DNA of 64,000 nucleotides from Alphaproteobacteria bacterium (GTDB taxonomy: Bacteria > Pseudomonadota > Alphaproteobacteria > Bin95), in contig OZ219787.1 in the NCBI GenBank assembly GCA_964291285.2, positions 1,152,001 to 1,216,000 on the forward strand, written 5' to 3'. The notes below the pieces were generated by a model. That model was not told the origin of the DNA. It saw nothing but the letters and a program-made list of their open reading frames with translations, and did no database searches. Made by a program: the position numbers and the translations under genes. Shown here one piece after another: positions 21,978 through 32,381 of this stretch (positions within the stretch are counted from its first letter, which is position 1; every line of letters begins with the position of its first letter).

Positions 21978-22158
21978 CGTTTGACGAAGAAAACGGACCC
22001 ATCGGAGCCATGACCTGAACCAAGGGCGGCGGCCGCACGAGGCCGCATTGCGCCCCAGCGAATTCGGACCCGCAATGCCGGCGGCGCAGGCCGGGCGGCA
22101 AGCGGGAGGGGTGCGGCCGCCATGCAGGCCCTGGGGGGACGAAACGGCAGCAAATTGC

Positions 22159-22245
22159 GGTCAACCTGAGCCGAAAAAGGCCGTTTGTGGTGGTCGACCT
22201 GAGCCGAAAAGGGCCGTTTGTGGCGGTCAACCTGAGCCGAAAAGG
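22159..22245 (+). repeat. 33-bp tandem repeat, ~2.6 copies
   Basis: GGTC(A/G)ACCTGAGCCGAAAA at 22159, 22192 and 22225. Confidence 0.9.
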
Positions 22246-22255
22246 AGAAGAGACG

Positions 22256-22693
22256 ATGACGAACGAAGTGGCGGACGGAACGGCGGGCGCGCCGGCGGCG
22301 GTCCTGCCGGTGCCGAGACAGGGCCGGGCGGTGAACGAGCAACTGCGGGGCCTGGTGCTGGCGGCCGTGCTGCATGAGGGCCTGACCGGCGGCGCGGCAG
22401 CGCGGCGGTTCGGGCTGGGCCGGGCGACGGTCAACCGGTGGGTGCGGCAGTTTCGCGAGACCGGCCAGGTGCGGGCCGGCGGGCAGGGGGGCAGCACCGC
22501 GCGGCTGGAGCGTTCGCGGGGGCTGATCCTCCGCATCCTGGTCGCGCGGCCGGACATTTCCATGTACGGATTGTGCGACATGCTCGCCGCCGAGGGGGTG
22601 AAAGCCAATCCGTTCACGCTGCAGCGCTTCCTGAAACGCCACGGCCTGGACCGCAAGAGCCGCCGCGCCCGGCGGCGGGGGAGCGGGGGCTAA
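22256..22693 (+). CDS. Stand-alone IS630-OrfA-like double-HTH protein (copy 3), no DDE domain
   Basis: AAARRFGLGRATVNRWVRQFRETG...ILVARPDISMYGLCDMLAAEG...QRFLKRHGL; AGGAG RBS. Confidence 0.75.
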   Translation: MTNEVADGTAGAPAAVLPVPRQGRAVNEQLRGLVLAAVLHEGLTGGAAARRFGLGRATVNRWVRQFRETGQVRAGGQGGSTARLERSRGLILRILVARPDISMYGLCDMLAAEGVKANPFTLQRFLKRHGLDRKSRRARRRGSGG

Positions 22694-22729: not shown

Positions 22730-22981
22730 CTAACAGGCCCGGTTGCGCAGTTCGCGGTCGGAGACGGTATCGCCGGCGTCCAGGGCGCGGCGTCCTTCCT
22801 CAAGGGCGTAGCGGCCCCCGCCGCTCAGCGGCTCGTCGGCCTCGGGGGCGAGGGAGAGCGCTCGAACGAACGGGTGCCCGGACCCGGACAGGAATTCGAG
22901 ATAACGCTCGGCGACCGGGAGTTCGCTGGCAGGAAGCGCGTCCACCAGCTGATGCAGTCGCTCCCCAGGCTCGGCTTCCAT
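22730..22981 (-). CDS. Orphan antitoxin-like small protein
   Basis: ERLHQLVDALPASEL...YLEFL...APEADEPLS...ALEEGRRALDAGDTVS; no adjacent toxin seen. Confidence 0.55.
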   Translation of the reverse strand: MEAEPGERLHQLVDALPASELPVAERYLEFLSGSGHPFVRALSLAPEADEPLSGGGRYALEEGRRALDAGDTVSDRELRNRAC

Positions 22982-23144
22982 GGCGCTCCCTCCGTGGCGG
23001 CTGCCGTCCCGAAGCTCTCTCGCCACTTGGAACGACGAAATTTGCTTCCGCCAAAATTTCAGCTTGCAGCTATCTCACGTCCAATATTAGCATGTGTATA
23101 AATCGGTTTTGTAATGCCTATCATCGGAGGAGGTTCGGGGTACA

Positions 23145-24245
23145 GTGGATGGAGGGGGAAATCCGCTGGCCGGCATCCGGGAGGAGCTTGCCGACGAATA
23201 TGCGCAGCCGACAGCGATGCCACAGCGCAGCGCACGCGCTCCGACCGCAGGGTGTCTATTCAGCGGCATGGGGGGATTTGCCTCCGGGCTGGTCGCCTCC
23301 GGCTTCACCGTCTCGTGGGCTTCCGACAACAATGCCGACGCGTGCGCCGCGTTCTCTCATCGCCATCCGGGCGTCCGCATCCTTCAATGTGATGTACAAG
23401 ATTTGCGAGCCGACGCTGACGGCCTTGCCCCAGTAGACGTCTTGGCCGCTGGCTTTCCGTGCCAAAGCTTCTCTCAGGCTGGCGGACGAAAGGGGTTTGA
23501 CGACGACCGAGGTAAAGCCTTTTTCGAAATACCCCGTCTACTCAGCGAGCTTGCGCCACAACATCGACCGAAGTTTTTGATTCTAGAGAATGTAGAGTAT
23601 ATCCTCTACGGCAATGATGGGCGCTGGTTTGATACCATCCAGCGCGAACTCCGCCGGGTCGGCTATTGGTTTCGCCGTCAATCCTGCTGGCAAGTCAATG
23701 TCAAGGATGCAACGGCTATTCCGCAGGACCGCTCTCGCGTCTTTATGGTTGCGGCTTCTCGCGAACACTATAGTCACAATCCGTTCAAACCTCCAATCAT
23801 TCAGGTAAATAGAGCAGCGACAGATGTAAACATATTCTTGGATCGTTCAAAAAGAGCGAATGACGATGATTATTTGCCAAAAGATAACAAATATTGTAAA
23901 ATGATAGAAACTAAAATACTGGAAGGAGAATCTTCTGAAAATTTATATCAATTGAGGCGATCTTATGTTCGAGAAAAAAGAGGGAAACAGTGCCCTACAT
24001 TAACGGCGAATATGGGAATTGGTGGCCATAATGTGCCATTCATCAAGGACTCGTGGGGTATTCGTCGCCTTACTGTAGAAGAAATTGCCCGGCTTCAAGG
24101 TTTTGATACTTCGGTTTCACTCTTTCCAGACTTAACGTCGCAGGCACAATATAGGTTGTTAGGAAATGCTGTCTGCCCAGAGCTTGCCCGTCTAGCAGCC
24201 AAAGAATGCTTTCCACACTTGACACTGGATGAGGAAATATCGTGA
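23145..24245 (+). CDS. DNA (cytosine-5)-methyltransferase
   Basis: Motifs LFSGMGG, GFPCQSFS, LENV, QDRSRVF, RRLT..EIARLQGF, LGNAV. Confidence 0.95.
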   Translation: MDGGGNPLAGIREELADEYAQPTAMPQRSARAPTAGCLFSGMGGFASGLVASGFTVSWASDNNADACAAFSHRHPGVRILQCDVQDLRADADGLAPVDVLAAGFPCQSFSQAGGRKGFDDDRGKAFFEIPRLLSELAPQHRPKFLILENVEYILYGNDGRWFDTIQRELRRVGYWFRRQSCWQVNVKDATAIPQDRSRVFMVAASREHYSHNPFKPPIIQVNRAATDVNIFLDRSKRANDDDYLPKDNKYCKMIETKILEGESSENLYQLRRSYVREKRGKQCPTLTANMGIGGHNVPFIKDSWGIRRLTVEEIARLQGFDTSVSLFPDLTSQAQYRLLGNAVCPELARLAAKECFPHLTLDEEIS

Positions 24246-26185
24246 CAAGAATCGGATGGAAATTTCCCCCCACGGGTGGCGGAGTGGAAGGTGGTTACAA
24301 TCATGCCGGCATGACTCACTTCCAAGGTGCTAGATATCCAAGTCTGGCACGGGAAGTGATCCAAAATTCCCTTGATGCACGCAAATCCGAAGCCCGCCCC
24401 GTTCATGTGACTTTCGAGATTCAACAGCTTCTACGGGATCAGATGCCCGGCTATGAGGAGTTTCTGGATATAATTAATCGTTGTATTGAAGCATCTGACA
24501 ATGACGAAAGGGCACGATCTGAATTGGAATTAGAGAAGAAAGTAGTGCAGCGTAAAAAAATCATTTTTCTACGTATAGTGGATAGAGAAACAACAGGACT
24601 TAGTGGTAGTAAGTGGGCAGCGCTGTTGAAGAAGGAGGGATTGCCGGATAAAGAAAGTGCTACTGCGGGTGGCAGCTTCGGTATAGGAAAGAACGCTCCT
24701 TTTGCGATGTCACCATTGAGGACGGTGTATTACTGGTCTCGGTTTGAAGCGGGCTCGGAAGTGTTGGAGAAATTTCAGGGTAAGGCTATACTGATTTCGC
24801 ATCTAGATGATGATAAGGAGGATACACAGAGTATCGGGTTCTTTGGCAGTAAGGACAAATGCTTGGAACTTTCAGATGCACAAATCCCAGAAGCAATTCG
24901 TATGATAGAAACTCCGGACAGGGGAATAGGAACTTCTCTTTGGATACCGGGATTCGATGGGTCGGCAATTTGGAGAGATAAGATTGCCGGGAGTGTAGTG
25001 GAAAATTTCTTTTGTGCTGTTGACGAAGCGAAACTCGAGGTCTTGGTTGATTCAGATTCTTATACGACGACTGATCTTCTTTCTATTGAAGCAGCGAGCT
25101 TGGGAGATTGGTTTGAACATCTTGTTAACAATGAAGCCCATTCCGAGGACAATCTTCGTTTGAGGCGGGCGAGGGCATTTTGGGAAGTTATGAAGGCGCC
25201 GATGGTTATAAAAGAGAAAGAGGATAAGGATTTGGGCCATTGCAAGTTATGGATAACGGTGAGTGATAAATACGAAGATGTTGGACGTGTTGGATTAATT
25301 CGATTGAATGGGATGTTGATAACCGATCAGCAGGAGGGGTTACGGCAGTTTCGACGCACGATGCCGTTCGCGGCAGTATGTCGATTCGAGTCCGACAAGG
25401 GTAACGAGTTGCTTCGTGGGATGGAGAATCCGAGGCACGATCAGTTTCAGCCGGAATTTTTGCCGACGGAGGATCGCAGCCGCGGACGGGCAGCGCTCAC
25501 GCGGATTACGAGATGGATTCGGGAGGAGATCAACAAGGTAGCGATGCCAGAGGTAAGTGGTGAAGCGATTGCTATTACGGAACTCGCCAGGCTGCTCCCA
25601 GACCTCGAACCAGATGACGGTCTTGGCGCGGTGCCCAGCGAGGACGGAGAGCGACCGCTCGAAGGCGCGCCCCTTATTCAGCTAAAGCCAATTCGGCCGC
25701 CGCGTCAAAGGCAGGAGGTGCCGGACGACGGCGTGGTCGAGGGAGGCCAGGAGGAAGGCGACGACGAGAACGGCGGGACGGTAGGCGGCGGAGGGGGGAG
25801 TGACAATGGTGACGGTGGCGGAGAAACGGGGAGTGGGACAGAGACGCTTGTTTTCGGTCCTGTCCAAATTGAGAACAGTAGATGTTTGCCGTCGCCCGAG
25901 GATAAGAAACGGTTGCAAGTCCTGTTTACCCCTAAATCCCGCGGGACCGGCGCGTCTCTGTCGCTTGTAGAGGCGGGTGATTCGGATTTTATCCAAAGAA
26001 ATGATCTCCAAGTGGTAAAGCCGAACGGGGAAAGAGTAAAACTGTCGGAATTTCACCTCGAATTCATAGCCAATGAACGAGTGAGTATTTTGATCGAGGG
26101 CGACGAACCTGTTGCACAGCGTGCATGGCGGATCATGGTGAAGCAACCCAAGGAGCATAAGCCGGCCGCAGAGGGACAGAAATAA
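24242..26185 (+). CDS. GHKL (Hsp90/MORC-like) ATPase-domain protein
   Basis: AREVIQNSLDA, DRETTGL, GGSFGIGK; acidic/Gly-rich linker before a beta-rich C-terminus; overlaps the MTase stop. Confidence 0.75.
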   Translation: MTRIGWKFPPTGGGVEGGYNHAGMTHFQGARYPSLAREVIQNSLDARKSEARPVHVTFEIQQLLRDQMPGYEEFLDIINRCIEASDNDERARSELELEKKVVQRKKIIFLRIVDRETTGLSGSKWAALLKKEGLPDKESATAGGSFGIGKNAPFAMSPLRTVYYWSRFEAGSEVLEKFQGKAILISHLDDDKEDTQSIGFFGSKDKCLELSDAQIPEAIRMIETPDRGIGTSLWIPGFDGSAIWRDKIAGSVVENFFCAVDEAKLEVLVDSDSYTTTDLLSIEAASLGDWFEHLVNNEAHSEDNLRLRRARAFWEVMKAPMVIKEKEDKDLGHCKLWITVSDKYEDVGRVGLIRLNGMLITDQQEGLRQFRRTMPFAAVCRFESDKGNELLRGMENPRHDQFQPEFLPTEDRSRGRAALTRITRWIREEINKVAMPEVSGEAIAITELARLLPDLEPDDGLGAVPSEDGERPLEGAPLIQLKPIRPPRQRQEVPDDGVVEGGQEEGDDENGGTVGGGGGSDNGDGGGETGSGTETLVFGPVQIENSRCLPSPEDKKRLQVLFTPKSRGTGASLSLVEAGDSDFIQRNDLQVVKPNGERVKLSEFHLEFIANERVSILIEGDEPVAQRAWRIMVKQPKEHKPAAEGQK

Positions 26186-27036
26186 TGAGATACGATCCGA
26201 ACAAGATGTGGCAATACCCGGTTCTGAGACCGGAAAGCGACGATTATCCAACTTCCGAATTTCAAGCGACCATTGATCCTCAAAGAATGGAAAATTCCAC
26301 AGCGCTTCGAGTGACAGTGGATTTCGCTCTCGGTGATGCAAATTTGTCCAAGCTCATCGAAGATCGATTCGCGCAATACATAATACTCACTCGATGCTCT
26401 AAAACATATTTTCGACAAATGAATTCAACTAATTCTGGGCGATTGATATTCGATATTGCTGGTGACAGGATTTACGGTGAAATTGAAATTTCTCCTTACA
26501 TAATGGCAGTAGATGAAATATCGGAATTTCGCGCCAATAGCTGGCATGAAGATTATGATTTGCTGCCAACACCGCACCTTGAACCTGGTTCCGTTCTCGC
26601 TCTTGACACTCCAAGGCACTACTATATTGACAATGCAGAGGAGCAATCGGTTAATTCGATTATTGAAGTGCAACCGGGCAATCCTGAAAATGGCAGATGG
26701 GATTGCGATTTCGAGGGGGAGAGAGTCAAAATCACTATGTCGAATGAAGATTATGAAAAATTTCGTCGTGCTCGTCAAGAAAATTTAAGCGAGGAAGAAA
26801 AGGCATAGATATTGAATTCGATTTACTTTCCGGCTGTTTACCACATATTGGTCACAACGGACTCGGAAAAAAGTGTTTATGTGGAAAGACGCTGGTATCG
26901 CGCACTCGATAAACGTCTTGAGGAGATAAACGGAGGAACTTTGGGCCAAGACGGTAGAAATAGACTGGAAGATGCGCAACGCTTGTTGGAAAACCCCTTT
27001 TCTCGATTACCTTTTATAGCTGCGGATGCGCTATAA
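26185..27036 (+). pseudogene. Hypothetical protein split by an in-frame TAG (26806-26808)
   Basis: ORFs 26185-26808 and 26812-27036 are in the same frame: EEEKA*ILNSIYFPAV; TAATG coupling at both ends. Confidence 0.7.
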
Positions 27037-27797
27037 TGAAGATCGTGCAATACTATACCGATCAGGCCGTGGAGAGCTTGCGAGACGATATTGAAACGAA
27101 TCTCGACTGGTACTATACGGGAAAGGGGGTGCAACCCGCTCCTAAGAATCTTGAACGACCCGTTCGAGAAAGTCATTTTAGGATGGAGAATATTATGGAA
27201 GTTCTTGAAGTTTCTGAAGAAAATCCTTCTGAATTGGATAGTGGAAATGCGATTAGGTTATACGCAGCGCTTCCTCAAATGACCCCGAAAGTCGCCTCCA
27301 TGGAAAAGCTCTGGACACGACTGTCGCACGGTGAGGGCGCCGAGTACATTAGCAGGCGCTGGTTGGTAACACGCCCTGAAGACAACGAAAAGGCGGCGAA
27401 GGCTGTGCGAAATCATTTTTTCGCTAAGGGAAATCGAGGTGTTATTCGAGATAATGGTTTGTCGAGGCTCTGGTGGCTTGGTCATATAGCGCATCGGACA
27501 GACCGGGAGAATCCTGACCTGTTTTTGGATATTGTTTTGCATAGGCAAGATGTTCGTTCCGCACTGGTAGAACGCCCTTCTGTTGCAATGAATGAGGCGG
27601 TCCTGTGTGGGATATATTCCGTTATGAAAGAGAAATGGGCCGCATGTGGTAGGAAGGCTAAACTTTTTCAGCGCGATGTTTTTCGCGGCTGGATGATTGG
27701 GTTGAACCGGCGCGGGGGCATTGTGCTGTTAGACGCGCTGCCTGAAAAAGTGCTCAATAAGGTGTTGTGGGAGGAAGCAGAGGCAGCGGGTGCATGA
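27036..27797 (+). CDS. DUF6339-like protein
   Basis: NAIRLY..L..MTP..A..EKLW..LSH...Y...RW...HFF...RDNGLSRLWW pattern (family assignment from memory). Confidence 0.65.
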   Translation: MKIVQYYTDQAVESLRDDIETNLDWYYTGKGVQPAPKNLERPVRESHFRMENIMEVLEVSEENPSELDSGNAIRLYAALPQMTPKVASMEKLWTRLSHGEGAEYISRRWLVTRPEDNEKAAKAVRNHFFAKGNRGVIRDNGLSRLWWLGHIAHRTDRENPDLFLDIVLHRQDVRSALVERPSVAMNEAVLCGIYSVMKEKWAACGRKAKLFQRDVFRGWMIGLNRRGGIVLLDALPEKVLNKVLWEEAEAAGA

Positions 27798-28074
27798 CGG
27801 ATAACCTGTCACCCGAAGCGCGGGCGCGCTGCATGTCGCATATTCGGTCGGAGGGAATGCGGCCGGAGCGGGCGGTTCGGTCGTTGGTCCATCGAATGGG
27901 TTTTCGATTTCGTCTGCACCGGCGCGATTTGCCGGGCAAGCCCGATTTGGTTTTGCCGAGGCACAAGGCGGTGATCTTCGTTCACGGCTGTTTTTGGCAT
28001 TGGCATCCAGATGTAGAGTGCCCTATCGCCGGGTTGCCAAAATCGAATCTTGGCTACTGGCTGCCGAAGCTAAC

Positions 28075-30086
28075 CCGACTTCCGCAACTCGGCTTGAGAA
28101 TCGACTGATTTGACGGTTTTCCGGCGCGAGAAGTGTCGGATTTCGGTGCAGTACCTCTCGGGACCGGCTTGTAGTGCCGACCTACCCCCTTGATCGGGCT
28201 GGCGAAGATCCGGACGCTGCGCTGATGTTCGTGCGCTGCAAGAGACGCTTCAAGGACGGCAAGGAGCACCGCTACTGGAGCGTTGTGGAGAACGTCCGGG
28301 TCCACGGCGGTCGGGTTGTTCAGCGTCAGGTGCTCTATCTCGGGGAGATCAACGACAGCCAGCGAGCGGCGTGGTGCCGCTCGATCGAGGTGGTGGAGGG
28401 CAAGTCGCGATCACGGCAGATGGCGCTGTTTCCCGAGGACCGGGAGGCGCCGGCGCTGACTTGCGAAGTGGTGAAGATCGACCTCTCGCAGGTGGCGCTT
28501 CACGACCCGCGCCAGTGGGGGGCGTGCTGGCTGGCGCTGTCCTTGTGGGACCGCCTGGACCTGGACCGCTTCTGGGAAGAGCGGCTGCCGGCGAGCCGGC
28601 AAGGCACGCGGTGGCTGGACATCCTGAAGATCCAGGTCTGCTACCGGCTGATCGACCCGGGCAGCGAGTGGCGCCTTCACCGTCACTGGTATGAGCACAG
28701 CGCGCTTCGCGATCTTCTGGGTGGCGAGCGGGCGATCGCCGACGACACACTCTATCGCTGTCTCGACAAGCTGCTGGCGCACAAGCAGGGCTTCTTCTCG
28801 TTTCTGCGCGACCGCTGGGCGACGCTGTTCGAGGCGCGCTTCGACGTGCTGCTCTACGACCTGACCTCGACCTACTTCGAGAGCGATCCGCCGTTCGATG
28901 ACAAGCGCCGCTTCGGCTACAGCCGGGACAAGCGGCCCGACTGCGTGCAGGTGGTGATCGCCCTGATCGTTACGCCGCAGGGCTTTCCGCTGGCCTATGA
29001 GGTGATGCCGGGCAACACCTCCGACGACACCACGCTGGCGGCGTTCCTCAAGAAGATCGAGGATCAGTATGGCCGCTCCGAGCGGGTGTGGATCATGGAC
29101 CGCGGCATCCCCACCGAGGAGACGCTGGCCGCGATGCGCGAGGGCGAGGCGCCGGTGCGCTACCTGGTGGGCACGCCCAAGGGCCGGCTGACGCGGCTCG
29201 AGAAGGTGTTCCTGGGCCTGCCCTGGCAGGAGGTGCGCCAGTCCGTGACTGTCAAGCTTCTGGTCGAGGATGGCGAGCTCTACGTCCTGGTGCGCAGCGA
29301 GGGGCGGCAGGTGAAGGAACGCGGCATGCGCCGGCGCCGGCTGAAGAGGCTGTGGCGTCGATTGGCCGAGTTGCAAGGGCAGTCGAACAGCCGGGATCAG
29401 TTGTTGCTCAAGCTCGGCGCCGCCAGGAAGGAGGCCGGCCGGGCCTGGAGCCTGGTCGACATCACCGTGCCCGGGACCGACAGCGAACTCGCCGCCAACG
29501 GCTTCTCATTCCGCCTGCAGCGCGACCGGCTGCGCCAGGTCCGCCGCCGCGAGGGCCGTTACCTGCTGCGATCCAACATGGTCGCCGAAGACCCCGCCAC
29601 GCTGTGGCATCTGTACATGCAGCTCGTCGAGATCGAGCAGGCGTTCAAGGAACTCAAGCACGACCTCGCGATCCGCCCCATCTTCCATCAGCGCCAAGAG
29701 CGCATCGAGGCGCATATCTTCGTCTCGTTCATCGCCTACTGCCTGCTGGTGACCCTGAAGAACCTCGCCCGGCCGCGCGCCCCGGGCCTCACCCCACGCG
29801 CCATCCTTGAGGCCTTCGCCACCATCCAGATGGTGGACGTCCATCTGCCAACCACCGACGGCCGGCACCTCGTCCTGCCGCGCCACACCCGGCCGAACAA
29901 GGAGCACGAGCTACTGCTGCAACAGCTCGGCATGACCTGGCCGCAGCAACCCGCACCCCGGATCTCCGCCTGACGGCACACGGCGCCGCCTCTCCGTTCG
30001 CCGCCTTGTAGTGCCGACCCTCGGGGAGACGATCAAGGCTATTCAATGAGTTAGCATCCTCATGACCCCCGAGTTGCGGAAGTCGG
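28075..30086 (+). mobile_element. IS1634-family insertion sequence
   Basis: IRs CCGACTTCCGCAACTC / GAGTTGCGGAAGTCGG; 6-bp TSD GCTAAC (28069-74, 30087-92). Confidence 0.93.
28225..29973 (+). CDS. IS1634 transposase
   Basis: YDLTSTYFE, GYSRDKRPD, IMDRGI, IEQAFKELK, IRPIFH. Confidence 0.93.
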   Translation: MFVRCKRRFKDGKEHRYWSVVENVRVHGGRVVQRQVLYLGEINDSQRAAWCRSIEVVEGKSRSRQMALFPEDREAPALTCEVVKIDLSQVALHDPRQWGACWLALSLWDRLDLDRFWEERLPASRQGTRWLDILKIQVCYRLIDPGSEWRLHRHWYEHSALRDLLGGERAIADDTLYRCLDKLLAHKQGFFSFLRDRWATLFEARFDVLLYDLTSTYFESDPPFDDKRRFGYSRDKRPDCVQVVIALIVTPQGFPLAYEVMPGNTSDDTTLAAFLKKIEDQYGRSERVWIMDRGIPTEETLAAMREGEAPVRYLVGTPKGRLTRLEKVFLGLPWQEVRQSVTVKLLVEDGELYVLVRSEGRQVKERGMRRRRLKRLWRRLAELQGQSNSRDQLLLKLGAARKEAGRAWSLVDITVPGTDSELAANGFSFRLQRDRLRQVRRREGRYLLRSNMVAEDPATLWHLYMQLVEIEQAFKELKHDLAIRPIFHQRQERIEAHIFVSFIAYCLLVTLKNLARPRAPGLTPRAILEAFATIQMVDVHLPTTDGRHLVLPRHTRPNKEHELLLQQLGMTWPQQPAPRISA

Positions 30087-30309
30087 GCTAACTCGAACAA
30101 GAGAGCGCGACGGCATGAACCAACGAGCGCTCGAAGCAATGGGCTGGCGGGTGCTCACAATCTGGGAATGCTCTTTGCGGCAGCCCGACGCAGTAACCAA
30201 TGAAATCAGCTACTTCTTGAGTTCTGGATAGTCTGGTCGACCTCACCCCCACGCATCCTTCGAGGCCGTTGCCGCGCCCCGCCCGGCAGCCGTGACACGG
30301 CCGGCGGGC

Positions 30310-31926
30310 TCACCCCCGCGCATCCTCCAGCGCCATCGCCGCGCCTTTTTCGGCGATCATGATGGTGGGGCTGTTGGTGTTGCCGGAGGTGATCGCGGGC
30401 ATGACCGAGGCGTCGATCACGCGGAGGTTCTCCAGCCCGTGGACCTTCAGCCGGTCGGTCACCACGGCCCCGGGGTCTCCGCCCATGCGGCAGGTGCCGA
30501 CGGGGTGGAAGATCGTCGTGCCGATGGCGCCCGCGGCCCCGGCCAGCTCCGCGTCCGCCTCGAGCGCCGCGCCGGGGAGGAACTCCTCGGGCTCGTAGGG
30601 CGCCAGCGAGGGCGCGGCGGCGATGCGGCGCGTGAGGCGGATCGCGGCCACCGCCACCTGCCGGTCGGCCTCGGTCGAGAGGTAGTTGGGCGCGATCGCC
30701 GGCGGCGCCTCCGGGTCCGGCGATTTCAGGCCGACCGTCCCCCGGCTCTCCGGCCGGAGGTTGCACACCGACGCCGTGAAGGCGGGGAAGCGGTGCAGCG
30801 GCTCGCCGAAGCGGTCCAGCGACAGCGGCTGCACATGGTATTGCAGGTTCGCGGTCTCGCGCGCGGGGTCGGACTTCGCGAAGGCGCCCAACTGGCTCGG
30901 CGCCATGGTGAGCGGCCCGCGCCGGAAGAGCGCATATTCGAGCCCCATGCCGAGCTTGCCCCAGAGGCTGTTCGCGCGCCGGTTCAGGGTCTCGACATGC
31001 GCCACCCGGTAGATCAGGCGAAGCTGGAGATGGTCCTGGAGGTTGGCGCCGACGCCGGCGAGCTCGTGATGGACCGCGACGCCCTTCTCCCGCAGCAGCG
31101 CGCCCGGCCCGACGCCCGAGACCTGCAGGAGATGCGGCGAGCCGACGGCGCCCGCCGCCAGGATGAGCTCGCCCGCGACTTCGGCGCGCGCCGGCCGGCC
31201 CTTCAGGCGGAACTCCAGGCCCGCCGCGCGGGAGCCGTCGAACAGGATGCGCCGCGCCTGGGCGTGGGTCAGCACGGTCAGGTTGGGGCGGTCCTGCGCG
31301 GGCTTGAGGAAGGCGTCGGCGGCGGTCCAGCGCACGCCGCGGCGCTGGTTGACCATGAACTTGCCCGTGCCCTCATTGTCGCCGTCGTTGAAGTCCGGCG
31401 TCGGACGCAGGCCGATATCGGCGCAGGCGCGCTGGAAGGCGTCGAGGATCTCCCAGCCGGTGCGCGGCTCCTCCACCCGCCATTCGCCGTCCGCGCCGTG
31501 AAAGGCGTCGGCCGGGCCGAAATGGCGCTCCGACTTCCGGAACCAGGGCAGCACGTCGTCCCAGCCCCAGCCGCGGTTGCCGCTCTGCGCCCAGCCGTCA
31601 TAGTCGCGCGCCTGGCCGCGCATGTAGATCATGCCGTTGATCGCCGAGCAGCCGCCCAGCACCCGCCCGCGCGGATAGGCGAGGGCGCGCCCGTTCAGCC
31701 CCGCCTCGGCCTCGGTGGTGAAGCACCAGTCGGTGCGCGGGTTGTTCTGGGTGTAGAGATAGCCGACGGGGATTTTGATCCAGATGTAGTTGTCCCGGCC
31801 GCCCGCCTCCAGCAGCAGCACCCGGTTGCGGGGGTCCTCCGAGAGCCGGTTCGCCAGCACGCACCCCGCCGAGCCCGCGCCGACGATCACATAGTCGAAG
31901 CTGCCGACGCTGGCGGGCCCGGTCAT
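30310..31926 (-). CDS. GMC oxidoreductase (choline dehydrogenase-like)
   Basis: [41 protein letters not shown]. Confidence 0.93.
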   Translation of the reverse strand: MTGPASVGSFDYVIVGAGSAGCVLANRLSEDPRNRVLLLEAGGRDNYIWIKIPVGYLYTQNNPRTDWCFTTEAEAGLNGRALAYPRGRVLGGCSAINGMIYMRGQARDYDGWAQSGNRGWGWDDVLPWFRKSERHFGPADAFHGADGEWRVEEPRTGWEILDAFQRACADIGLRPTPDFNDGDNEGTGKFMVNQRRGVRWTAADAFLKPAQDRPNLTVLTHAQARRILFDGSRAAGLEFRLKGRPARAEVAGELILAAGAVGSPHLLQVSGVGPGALLREKGVAVHHELAGVGANLQDHLQLRLIYRVAHVETLNRRANSLWGKLGMGLEYALFRRGPLTMAPSQLGAFAKSDPARETANLQYHVQPLSLDRFGEPLHRFPAFTASVCNLRPESRGTVGLKSPDPEAPPAIAPNYLSTEADRQVAVAAIRLTRRIAAAPSLAPYEPEEFLPGAALEADAELAGAAGAIGTTIFHPVGTCRMGGDPGAVVTDRLKVHGLENLRVIDASVMPAITSGNTNSPTIMIAEKGAAMALEDARG

Positions 31927-32348
31927 GCCGCCTGCGTCGTGACGACGAGTCGTTCACCGAGCAGCCGAAGCGCGGCCTCGACCCGATCGATATGCGAACG
32001 GTGGTCCAGATCGAGCAGGCGCCGCACGGCGCCCTCCGTCGTTCCGAGCTCGGCGGCAAGCGCGGTGTTGCCCAGTCCGTGGCCGCGCATGGCGCAATAG
32101 AGCGCCAGTTTCGCCGCCGCCAGGGCGGGCAGGGCGATCAGCGGCCGCCCGCGGGCCGGAGACGGTTTCGGAACGGAGCGCCGCAGTTCGATATACCCGC
32201 CCAGGGCCGCGATGAGGCAGTCCTCTGCTTCAGACAGGGCCTCCTCGTCCGTATCGCCTTCGGTCAGGGCCTCGGGAATGTCGGGGAATGACACAAGGAC
32301 GGTTCCGTCGCATTGCGGTTCCAGACTCACGGGATAGGCGAGCCGCAT
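31923..32348 (-). CDS. hicB: HicB antitoxin with C-terminal HTH
   Basis: VSFPDIPEALTEGDTDEEALSEAEDCL; HTH...RRLLDLDH. Confidence 0.9.
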   Translation of the reverse strand: MRLAYPVSLEPQCDGTVLVSFPDIPEALTEGDTDEEALSEAEDCLIAALGGYIELRRSVPKPSPARGRPLIALPALAAAKLALYCAMRGHGLGNTALAAELGTTEGAVRRLLDLDHRSHIDRVEAALRLLGERLVVTTQAA

Positions 32349-32381
32349 CGTTTGTGCCTTTCTGTGCGCTGTCATTGATGC

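Follow-up and report, generated by a model that had tools for sequence, protein, structure and literature searches.

A decayed copy of a mobile C5-methyltransferase, PDC-M33 and Vsr cassette, probably restriction-modification-like, in an alphaproteobacterial genome

The subject of this work is a five-gene operon in the genome of an Alphaproteobacteria bacterium (Bin95), located within a stretch of 64,000 nt (GCA_964291285.2, contig OZ219787.1, positions 1,152,001-1,216,000) that was analysed as a whole and is hereafter called the window. On the + strand and in a single direction, the operon encodes a C5 cytosine DNA methyltransferase (MT), three proteins designated A, B and C, and a Vsr-family nuclease. 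This copy is decayed, as B carries a nonsense codon and the Vsr gene is split by an insertion sequence (IS). The features of the locus, including open reading frames (ORFs), are listed below.

23027..23144, + strand: AT-rich leader with a ribosome-binding-like run (GGAGGAGG); the GC drop begins here
23145..24245, + strand: C5 cytosine DNA methyltransferase (MT), 366 aa; PF00145, 1.2e-51; appears intact
24242..26185, + strand: gene A, 647 aa; PADLOC PDC-M33A, 5.7e-98
26185..27036, + strand: gene B, 283 codons; pseudogene with an in-frame TAG at 26806-26808 (codon 208)
27036..27797, + strand: gene C, 253 aa, DUF6339; PF19866, 1.2e-38; PDC-M33C, 1.3e-38; appears intact
27794..28073, + strand: 5' part of the Vsr gene; PF03852, 3.3e-26; ends at the IS insertion
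28074..30087, + strand: IS1634-family element, 2014 bp; transposase ORF at 28174-29973
30088..30231, + strand: 3' part of the Vsr gene; in frame from 30091, with a TAG stop

Consecutive genes are closely joined. As read directly from the sequence, MT and A overlap at GTGA (24242-24245), A and B and then B and C meet at TAATG (26183-26187 and 27034-27038, respectively), and C and Vsr overlap at ATGA (27794-27797). The genes lie in an island of low GC content (23.0-28.1 kb) in a genome of roughly 70% GC; the island showed 44-54% GC in 1-kb windows against 66-74% on each flank, the operon being about 20 points below its flanks. An initial annotation of this DNA had described five coupled genes with these junctions in an AT-rich island, and both the reading of the junctions and the measured GC dip bear this out. 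The leader is presumed to be the promoter region of the operon; a scan of 23027..23144 for the sigma-70 consensus returned no match, and a promoter and terminator scan of the same segment gave nothing above shuffled expectation.

The MT matched PF00145 (176.6 bits, cut-off 22) and TIGR00675 (181.1 bits, cut-off 100.65) over the full length, and its closest solved relatives, M.HaeIII (7e-21) and M.HhaI (4e-19), were likewise matched over the full length. The protein contains the stretches FSGMGG, PCQ, ENV, QxRxR and GNAV, which we take to be the C5-MT motifs. It also matched the DruM and DrmMII models of PADLOC, which reflects generic C5-MT similarity; A, B and C matched neither. The identities that the initial annotation had given to the outer and the fourth genes, namely C5-MT, DUF6339 and Vsr, agree with the matches to PF00145, PF19866 and PF03852.

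Protein A begins with a GHL/GHKL ATPase and transducer region (up to about residue 445), which is followed by a disordered linker rich in Gly, Asp and Glu (about 450-536) and, at the C-terminus, by a beta-rich domain (538-636). It matched no Pfam family, the HATPase_c models included, and no NCBIfam family, and a PDB profile search with 30 A homologues returned only low-complexity chance matches. When the AlphaFold2 (AF2) model of A (pLDDT 76) was compared with the PDB by Foldseek, 229 matches were obtained at E<=0.001, with about 450-540 columns aligned, the top folds being those of TRAP1/Hsp90 (1.2e-8), TopoVI-B (4.5e-8), MORC2 (1.3e-7), GyrB (5.5e-7) and MutL-N40 (6.9e-7). These matches cover roughly the first 450 residues. 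Several residues are invariant across the 30 homologues (E38, N42 and D45; D114, T117 and G119; G144, S145, G147, G149 and K150; G230 and T231), and their positions presumably correspond to the N box (ExxxNxxD), G1, G2 (GxxGxG) and GT motifs of ATP binding. Because of the fold matches and these invariant motifs, and with curated sequence models silent, A is called GHKL-type, so that the label of GHKL ATPase first given to it was right by fold. The predicted structure describes A as a GHL clamp-type ATPase in which an N-terminal Bergerat fold is followed by a transducer. In the transducer E395 and H399 are also invariant among the 30 homologues, forming an ExxxH motif, while the consensus around the invariant R354 showed no obvious fit, by eye only, to the MORC motif GhXhhpXXRhl.

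Gene B is interrupted by its TAG codon at a column where the consensus of the family is Tyr. Accordingly, PADLOC PDC-M33B was matched in two pieces, at profile positions 5-198 (4.9e-39) and 208-274 (5.9e-7) of 289. No Pfam or NCBIfam family matched B; its family, represented by an alignment profile and by the intact homologue of locus L016, gave no PDB or PHROGs match, the PDB profile search returning chance-level matches only, and all 30 neighbours of B in a protein atlas were unnamed clusters. Few residues of B are invariant (P12, V13, L14, D20, T74, G135 and Q265). The family is large, as the B profile retrieved 3391 clusters at 50% identity (E<=0.001), and profile-profile comparison detected no relationship of B to A or to C.

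Protein C matched PF19866 with 133 bits (cut-off 23.2) over profile positions 2-173 of 175. Its AF2 model is almost all alpha-helical and confident (pLDDT 96.6, pTM 0.92); Foldseek found nothing at E<=0.001 for this model in the PDB (best 0.87) or in BFVD (best 0.33), the protein atlas gave matches below 0.85 and no lead, and the PDB profile search stayed at chance level. A Pfam scan of longer C-like ORFs showed no extra domains. The near-invariant residues of C comprise W93, W146, W147, G227 and G228 together with a polar set (D68, N71, E90, H98, R108, N140, R144, R213, N224 and D233). Since this polar set is the densest found, C would be the best candidate for a catalytic subunit. PHROGs contained no family for A, B or C. 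The initial annotation had reported no recognisable restriction endonuclease (REase) or helicase in the operon, and the library searches recognised neither in A, B or C. B and C are conserved partners of A, and the predicted fold of C has no solved counterpart.

The three proteins may associate physically, as hinted by two natural fusions: P0156 (749 aa) joins A(1-472) to B and lacks the A linker and C-terminal domain, and P0275 (541 aa) joins B to C, each being a single record. A search for B within longer, fused proteins came up empty; as it also missed P0156, its reach is limited. In complex predictions with A(1-450) and B of L016 and with C as the scored partner, the score was 0.65-0.67, compared with 0.65 when A was replaced and 0.00 in the partner-replaced controls, values that speak neither for nor against a complex.

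The gene downstream of C is a Vsr gene split by an IS1634-family element. The 5' part alone scored 105.9 bits against TIGR00632 (cut-off 97.85), and the translation of the 3' part begins with TRTRERDG and contains GWRVLTIWEC. This part carries the expected C-terminus, and it stops at 30231, where the initial annotation had also set the end of the operon. The assignment of the element to the IS1634 family is documented by its transposase (NF033559 transpos_IS1634, 9.5e-91, 305.2 bits, cut-off 100; also DDE_Tnp_1), by 19-nt terminal inverted repeats and by CTAA target duplications at 28070-28073 and 30088-30091. The GC content of the element is about 64-68%. The initial annotation had hinted at breakage by speaking of a repaired operon; the breakage is real, and its sites, the TAG in B and the IS in Vsr, were located here. 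Thus, the effector side of the window copy appears to be dead, with the frames of MT, A and C remaining open. Such decay is usual for systems of this sort.

In PADLOC, A, B and C matched the components A, B and C of candidate PDC-M33, adjacent to one another and in the same order and strand; the matches extend over profile positions 1-580 of 627 for A and 3-240 of 247 for C, with B divided by its TAG. The accessible text of the source describes the PDC systems as 145 untested candidates obtained via 'guilt by embedding', their homologues being embedded in BREX, DISARM or type I restriction-modification (R-M) loci (10.1101/2024.01.29.577857). The PDC-M33 models cover A, B and C alone, and neither methylase nor Vsr figures in the description available to us. 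The initial annotation had taken the middle genes for an uncharacterised effector complex and had itself listed a match to an already named system as contrary to its proposal; PDC-M33 is, formally, such a match. It had also stated that the operon does not fit a simple type II R-M, Druantia or Mza layout; the trio does have a catalogued layout, that of PDC-M33. Classical type II R-M was rejected as an identity, since neither Pfam nor NCBIfam nor PADLOC gave a REase match for A, B or C. Also dismissed were Mza, Druantia, Hma, MADS, Tiamat and AbiR: PADLOC, which includes AbiR models, matched A, B and C to PDC-M33 only, and the absence of model matches for the trio sets it apart from the first five. 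Full-text literature searches retrieved no paper naming PDC-M33 or DUF6339, and a search combining GHKL, very short patch and defense system found no paper either.

The distribution of the operon was then surveyed. Among GTDB contigs representing one genome per species, the A profile retrieved 315 relatives, from which 78 loci were retained. A, B and C are contiguous in 72 of these and form a conserved unit, which supports this part of the earlier interpretation; four of the remaining six loci run off the contig end, and two (L021 and L050) have the MT and a truncated A, with no B or C. A C5-MT lies directly upstream of A on the same strand in 56/78 loci, and in 35/78 C is immediately followed by Vsr. 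Chance alone would not account for the arrangement, as 56 of the 78 loci, drawn from several phyla, show this order of genes. The stop codon of one gene overlaps the start of the next by 1 or 4 nt at 32/56 MT-A junctions, with a gap of at most 20 nt in a further 9/56, and at 34/72 A-B, 45/70 B-C and 6/35 C-Vsr junctions. Both the order of the genes and their coupling are preserved from phylum to phylum. Relative to PDC-M33 as catalogued, 56/78 loci add a translationally coupled, orthologous C5-MT upstream and, often, Vsr downstream. The count of Vsr among MT-coupled loci took in 54 loci, with Vsr directly downstream of C in 32 and absent there in 22; Vsr goes with the methylase rather than with the A-B-C trio. 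Many of the MT-coupled loci (L001-L050) belong to metagenome-assembled genomes, including Dehalococcoidia, Poribacteria, 'Spongiihabitans', 'Poriferihabitaceae' and Acidobacteriota.

A tree of A was built from 60 sequences, leaving out 19 loci with fragmented or short A, and was rooted at its midpoint only. Two groups are recovered with good support (SH-aLRT 99). The window's clade comprises 42 rows, 39 of them MT-coupled, from Chloroflexota, Acidobacteriota and Pseudomonadota, which are the main phyla, and from Actinomycetota, Gemmatimonadota and Nitrospirota. The second clade comprises 18 rows, mostly from Bacillota and Fusobacteriota, with the MT absent in 13, present in 2 and beyond reach at a contig edge in 3. 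The tie between the trio and a C5-MT, first proposed from the window alone, is thus supported for the window's clade, where one orthologous MT is kept in 39 of 42 rows. Two Bacillota loci, L061 (13470-16693) and L062, show a different arrangement, with A-B-C followed by a 931-aa Sigma70_r4-domain protein and then by Vsr, and with a 560-aa C5-MT about 400 nt upstream of A. The large sigma-70-like protein of these two loci recalls AbiRi as described in the accessible text of PMC13064643.

Of the linked MTs, 55 were aligned against the window's MT. Most showed 53-61% identity to it, and in the presumed target-recognition region (residues 216-300) the identity was 45-60% with 84-85 of 85 columns aligned and no length variation. 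A gammaproteobacterial/Nitrospirota subgroup was more distant (43-46%), as was the MT of L078 (39%). The MT is more conserved than A, for which identity is about 40-48%. A Pfam scan of long MT ORFs revealed no extra domains. The alignment indicates that the linked methylases are a single orthologous lineage with a conserved target-recognition region, and this lineage therefore probably marks one motif.

The cassette is clearly horizontally transferred. The GC content of the operon is at least 3 points below that of its flanks in 61/74 loci (mean -7.0), and distant relatives turn up in 26 records of plasmids and 2 of phages. A conjugative plasmid of Lactococcus carries the trio, with no linked MT, flanked by an AlwI-family endonuclease on one side and by AbiGII on the other, and on a Deinococcus plasmid a Dcm-Vsr pair lies two genes upstream of the trio. 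Defence neighbourhoods were scanned with PADLOC models in the four nearest ORFs around each of 30 MT-coupled loci (120 ORFs). A model was matched by 18 of the 120 ORFs, and 12 of these, in 8 of the 30 loci, were of defence type (DRT, REase, DruA, mad2/mad3-like ATPases and helicases). Two Acidimicrobiales loci, L017 and L020, carry upstream of MT-A-B-C-Vsr a helicase-like gene (685 aa) with matches to PbeA and to type IV REase-like models, and downstream a 950-1000-aa protein with strong mad3/mad8-like matches (~1e-95); L017 also has a DruA homologue (5.6e-110). In the MT-less loci L055 (14379-16214) and L063 (13535-15421), a GmrSD-family (type IV) restriction gene directly follows C.

In the window, the island is flanked by ordinary chromosomal genes, with a luciferase-like monooxygenase, GCS2 and DUF3179 on one side and a GMC oxidoreductase, a HicB-like gene and TldD on the other. 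The HicB-like antitoxin domain (PF15919, 8.3e-7) is encoded by an ORF on the - strand (31923-32375) that adjoins the GMC oxidoreductase gene. An IS630-like fragment lies immediately upstream of the island. At the 5' end of its helix-turn-helix (HTH) ORF (22187-22693) there are three tandem units of 33-36 nt (22142-22243; AAACGGC...GAGCCGAAAA), with a mutual likeness of 75-81%, and between the fragment and the island runs a high-GC ORF of 98 aa on the - strand (22730-23026) with no Pfam or NCBIfam family. A repeat search around the island detected no att-like sites or flanking direct repeats; the 64-kb window contains no tRNA, and no integrase marks the island.

Decay was also evaluated in the relatives. 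Of the 56 loci coupled to an MT, 15 have a fragmented A (L056 being only 1 aa under the length threshold), 3 have a broken B and 2 lack it, and 2 score as having a broken C (L053 being only 7 aa short) and 2 lack it. A clearly broken MT occurs in only 2. In L001, L008, L019 and L033, A or B is interrupted by insertions of 1.2-1.7 kb.

The association of such ATPases with cytosine methylases has precedents. Iyer, Abhiman and Aravind (2008, PMC2292703) described, in the text accessible to us, paraMORCs as five GHKL families in operons with cytosine methylases and Vsr, proposed that GHKL ATPases next to these genes act in R-M systems, and gave as the hallmark of paraMORC2 a conserved ExxxH towards the C-terminal end of the S5 domain. 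Like paraMORC2, A has an N-terminal GHKL region with a transducer and invariant E395 and H399 at the ExxxH position, and like the paraMORCs it adjoins cytosine methylases and Vsr-family nucleases with a patchy distribution via lateral transfer. However, the paper stresses, as far as its accessible text goes, partner helicases and RE-fold nucleases, neither of which is present in the window operon, and in its account paraMORC2 is chiefly a family of cyanobacteria and Gram-positives, whereas the window's clade is mainly from Chloroflexota, Acidobacteriota and Pseudomonadota. On its ExxxH motif, A is possibly a paraMORC2, which we regard as a lead. The trio is already catalogued as a candidate, and the general theme of a GHKL ATPase with Dcm and Vsr was published as early as 2008.

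The cassette resembles classical type II R-M in its monospecific M.HaeIII/M.HhaI-like methylase, linked Vsr, tight coupling and acquired low-GC island, but in place of a recognisable REase it has a 647-aa GHL ATPase and two proteins of no known family, and an ATP requirement is therefore expected. By its logic, the nearest tested analogue in the literature available to us is AbiR of Lactococcus, a three-gene effector that depends on the LlaKR2I methylase and is toxic in its absence (PMC13064643). The parts of AbiR described in the accessible text, a sigma-70-like protein, a ParB-like protein, and a nuclease with a Snf2 helicase, are unrelated to A, B and C (PMC13064643). A further likeness is shared with Mza, Hma, MADS, Tiamat and prokaryotic MORC, which likewise pair a GHL/GHKL-type ATPase with DNA methylases and for which self/non-self discrimination by methylation has been proposed (10.64898/2026.09.30.754977, accessible text).

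Taken as a whole, we hold it most likely, with confidence a little better than even, that the window carries a decayed copy of a horizontally mobile cassette composed of a Dcm-type C5-MT, PDC-M33 A/B/C and Vsr, and that the family is an R-M-like anti-phage system. In such a system the MT would write 5-methylcytosine (5mC) on the host copies of its motif, and A, B and C would assemble into one machine detecting the unmethylated motif on incoming DNA. ATP-driven closing of an A dimer would hold this DNA, which would then be inactivated, probably by cleavage. Vsr would act as an accessory of the MT by repairing the T:G mismatches that arise from deamination of 5mC.

Several points weigh against an R-M-like system. 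Searches of A, B and C against Pfam, NCBIfam, PADLOC, PHROGs and PDB profiles revealed no domain of a nuclease or helicase and none that would read DNA, and 'restriction' with no identified catalyst is therefore the chief weakness. The trio occurs with no adjacent MT in 13/18 rows of the second clade, on several plasmids and in 2 phage records, so that methylation is not universally required. In 22 of the 30 scanned MT-coupled loci there is no defence gene among the four nearest ORFs, and literature searches found no published experiment on any family member. The P0156 and P0275 fusions may be artefacts of assembly or gene calling. The asymmetry of decay between MT and effector genes is only a trend (binomial p ~0.09, scaled to gene length), and frameshifts in metagenome-assembled genomes may be sequencing errors.

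The frequent absence of an adjacent MT in the second clade lends itself to another explanation, which we consider rather unlikely, in which A-B-C provides defence by itself and takes no account of the linked methylation, and Dcm-Vsr is a separate selfish or epigenetic module travelling along in one clade. The trio might then respond to phage proteins or to the ends of DNA, target modified DNA like a type IV system, or cause abortive infection. Such a module is in keeping with the definition of PDC-M33 in PADLOC by A, B and C alone, with the rarity of an adjacent C5-MT in the second clade (missing from 13 of its 18 rows), with the trio standing beside type IV-like GmrSD genes (L055, L063) and on plasmids with no linked MT, and with the Dcm-Vsr pair two genes from the trio on the Deinococcus plasmid; Dcm-Vsr pairs are, moreover, common on their own. 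However, in most loci of the window's clade A starts within or right at the end of the MT gene, and the MT is one orthologous lineage, more conserved than A. As the MT is kept in 39/42 rows and six phyla despite clear horizontal transfer, hitch-hiking is hard to uphold. The fold shared by A and MutL (GHL and transducer) allows yet another proposal, that the cassette is a portable very-short-patch repair kit in which the MutL-like A, with B and C, stimulates Vsr or targets it to the T:G mismatches created by the MT. The functional link of E. coli Vsr to MutL via its N-terminus, as cited in the accessible text of PMC2292703, agrees with this, as does the presence of MT, MutL-like ATPase and Vsr in one operon here and in 32/54 MT-coupled loci. 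We judge it very improbable: Vsr is not beside the trio in 43/78 loci, 22/54 MT-coupled loci among them, and C-Vsr is the least tightly coupled junction (6/35 overlaps). The trio is found with neither MT nor Vsr in the second clade, in defence islands and on plasmids beside Abi or restriction genes, and PDC-M33 was chosen, according to the accessible text of its source, via embedding in BREX, DISARM or type I R-M loci.

The window copy itself is somewhat more likely than not a historical remnant with no present function, leaving an orphan methylase whose effect, if any, would be epigenetic. The in-frame TAG in B and the split Vsr point to this, as do the intact MT frame with all its motifs and the loci L021 and L050, which likewise hold the MT and a truncated A with neither B nor C. 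Against a remnant, A and C are still full length, and the TAG in B could be a sequencing error or be suppressed; this explanation concerns the window copy only and is compatible with an R-M-like anti-phage function of the family. Finally, we give a low chance to two bolder versions of that function: either the catalytic chemistry resides in a fold not yet seen, with C or B being a new DNA-acting enzyme or a reader of unmethylated cytosine driven by a MutL/MORC-like clamp, or a nuclease-free GHL clamp entraps and silences DNA lacking 5mC. The latter, if true, would be a bacterial counterpart of eukaryotic MORC-type methylation-linked silencing.

The window copy is thus valuable as a pointer to the family and not as a working system. 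The family is large, with 3391 B clusters and 315 A relatives, and unnamed in the literature searched, and it brings together a MutL/MORC/Hsp90-like ATPase and a cytosine methylase with no recognisable nuclease. A working copy would make the reading of DNA methylation by a GHL clamp tractable to study, a question that bears on eukaryotic MORC, and could uncover a new DNA-acting fold.

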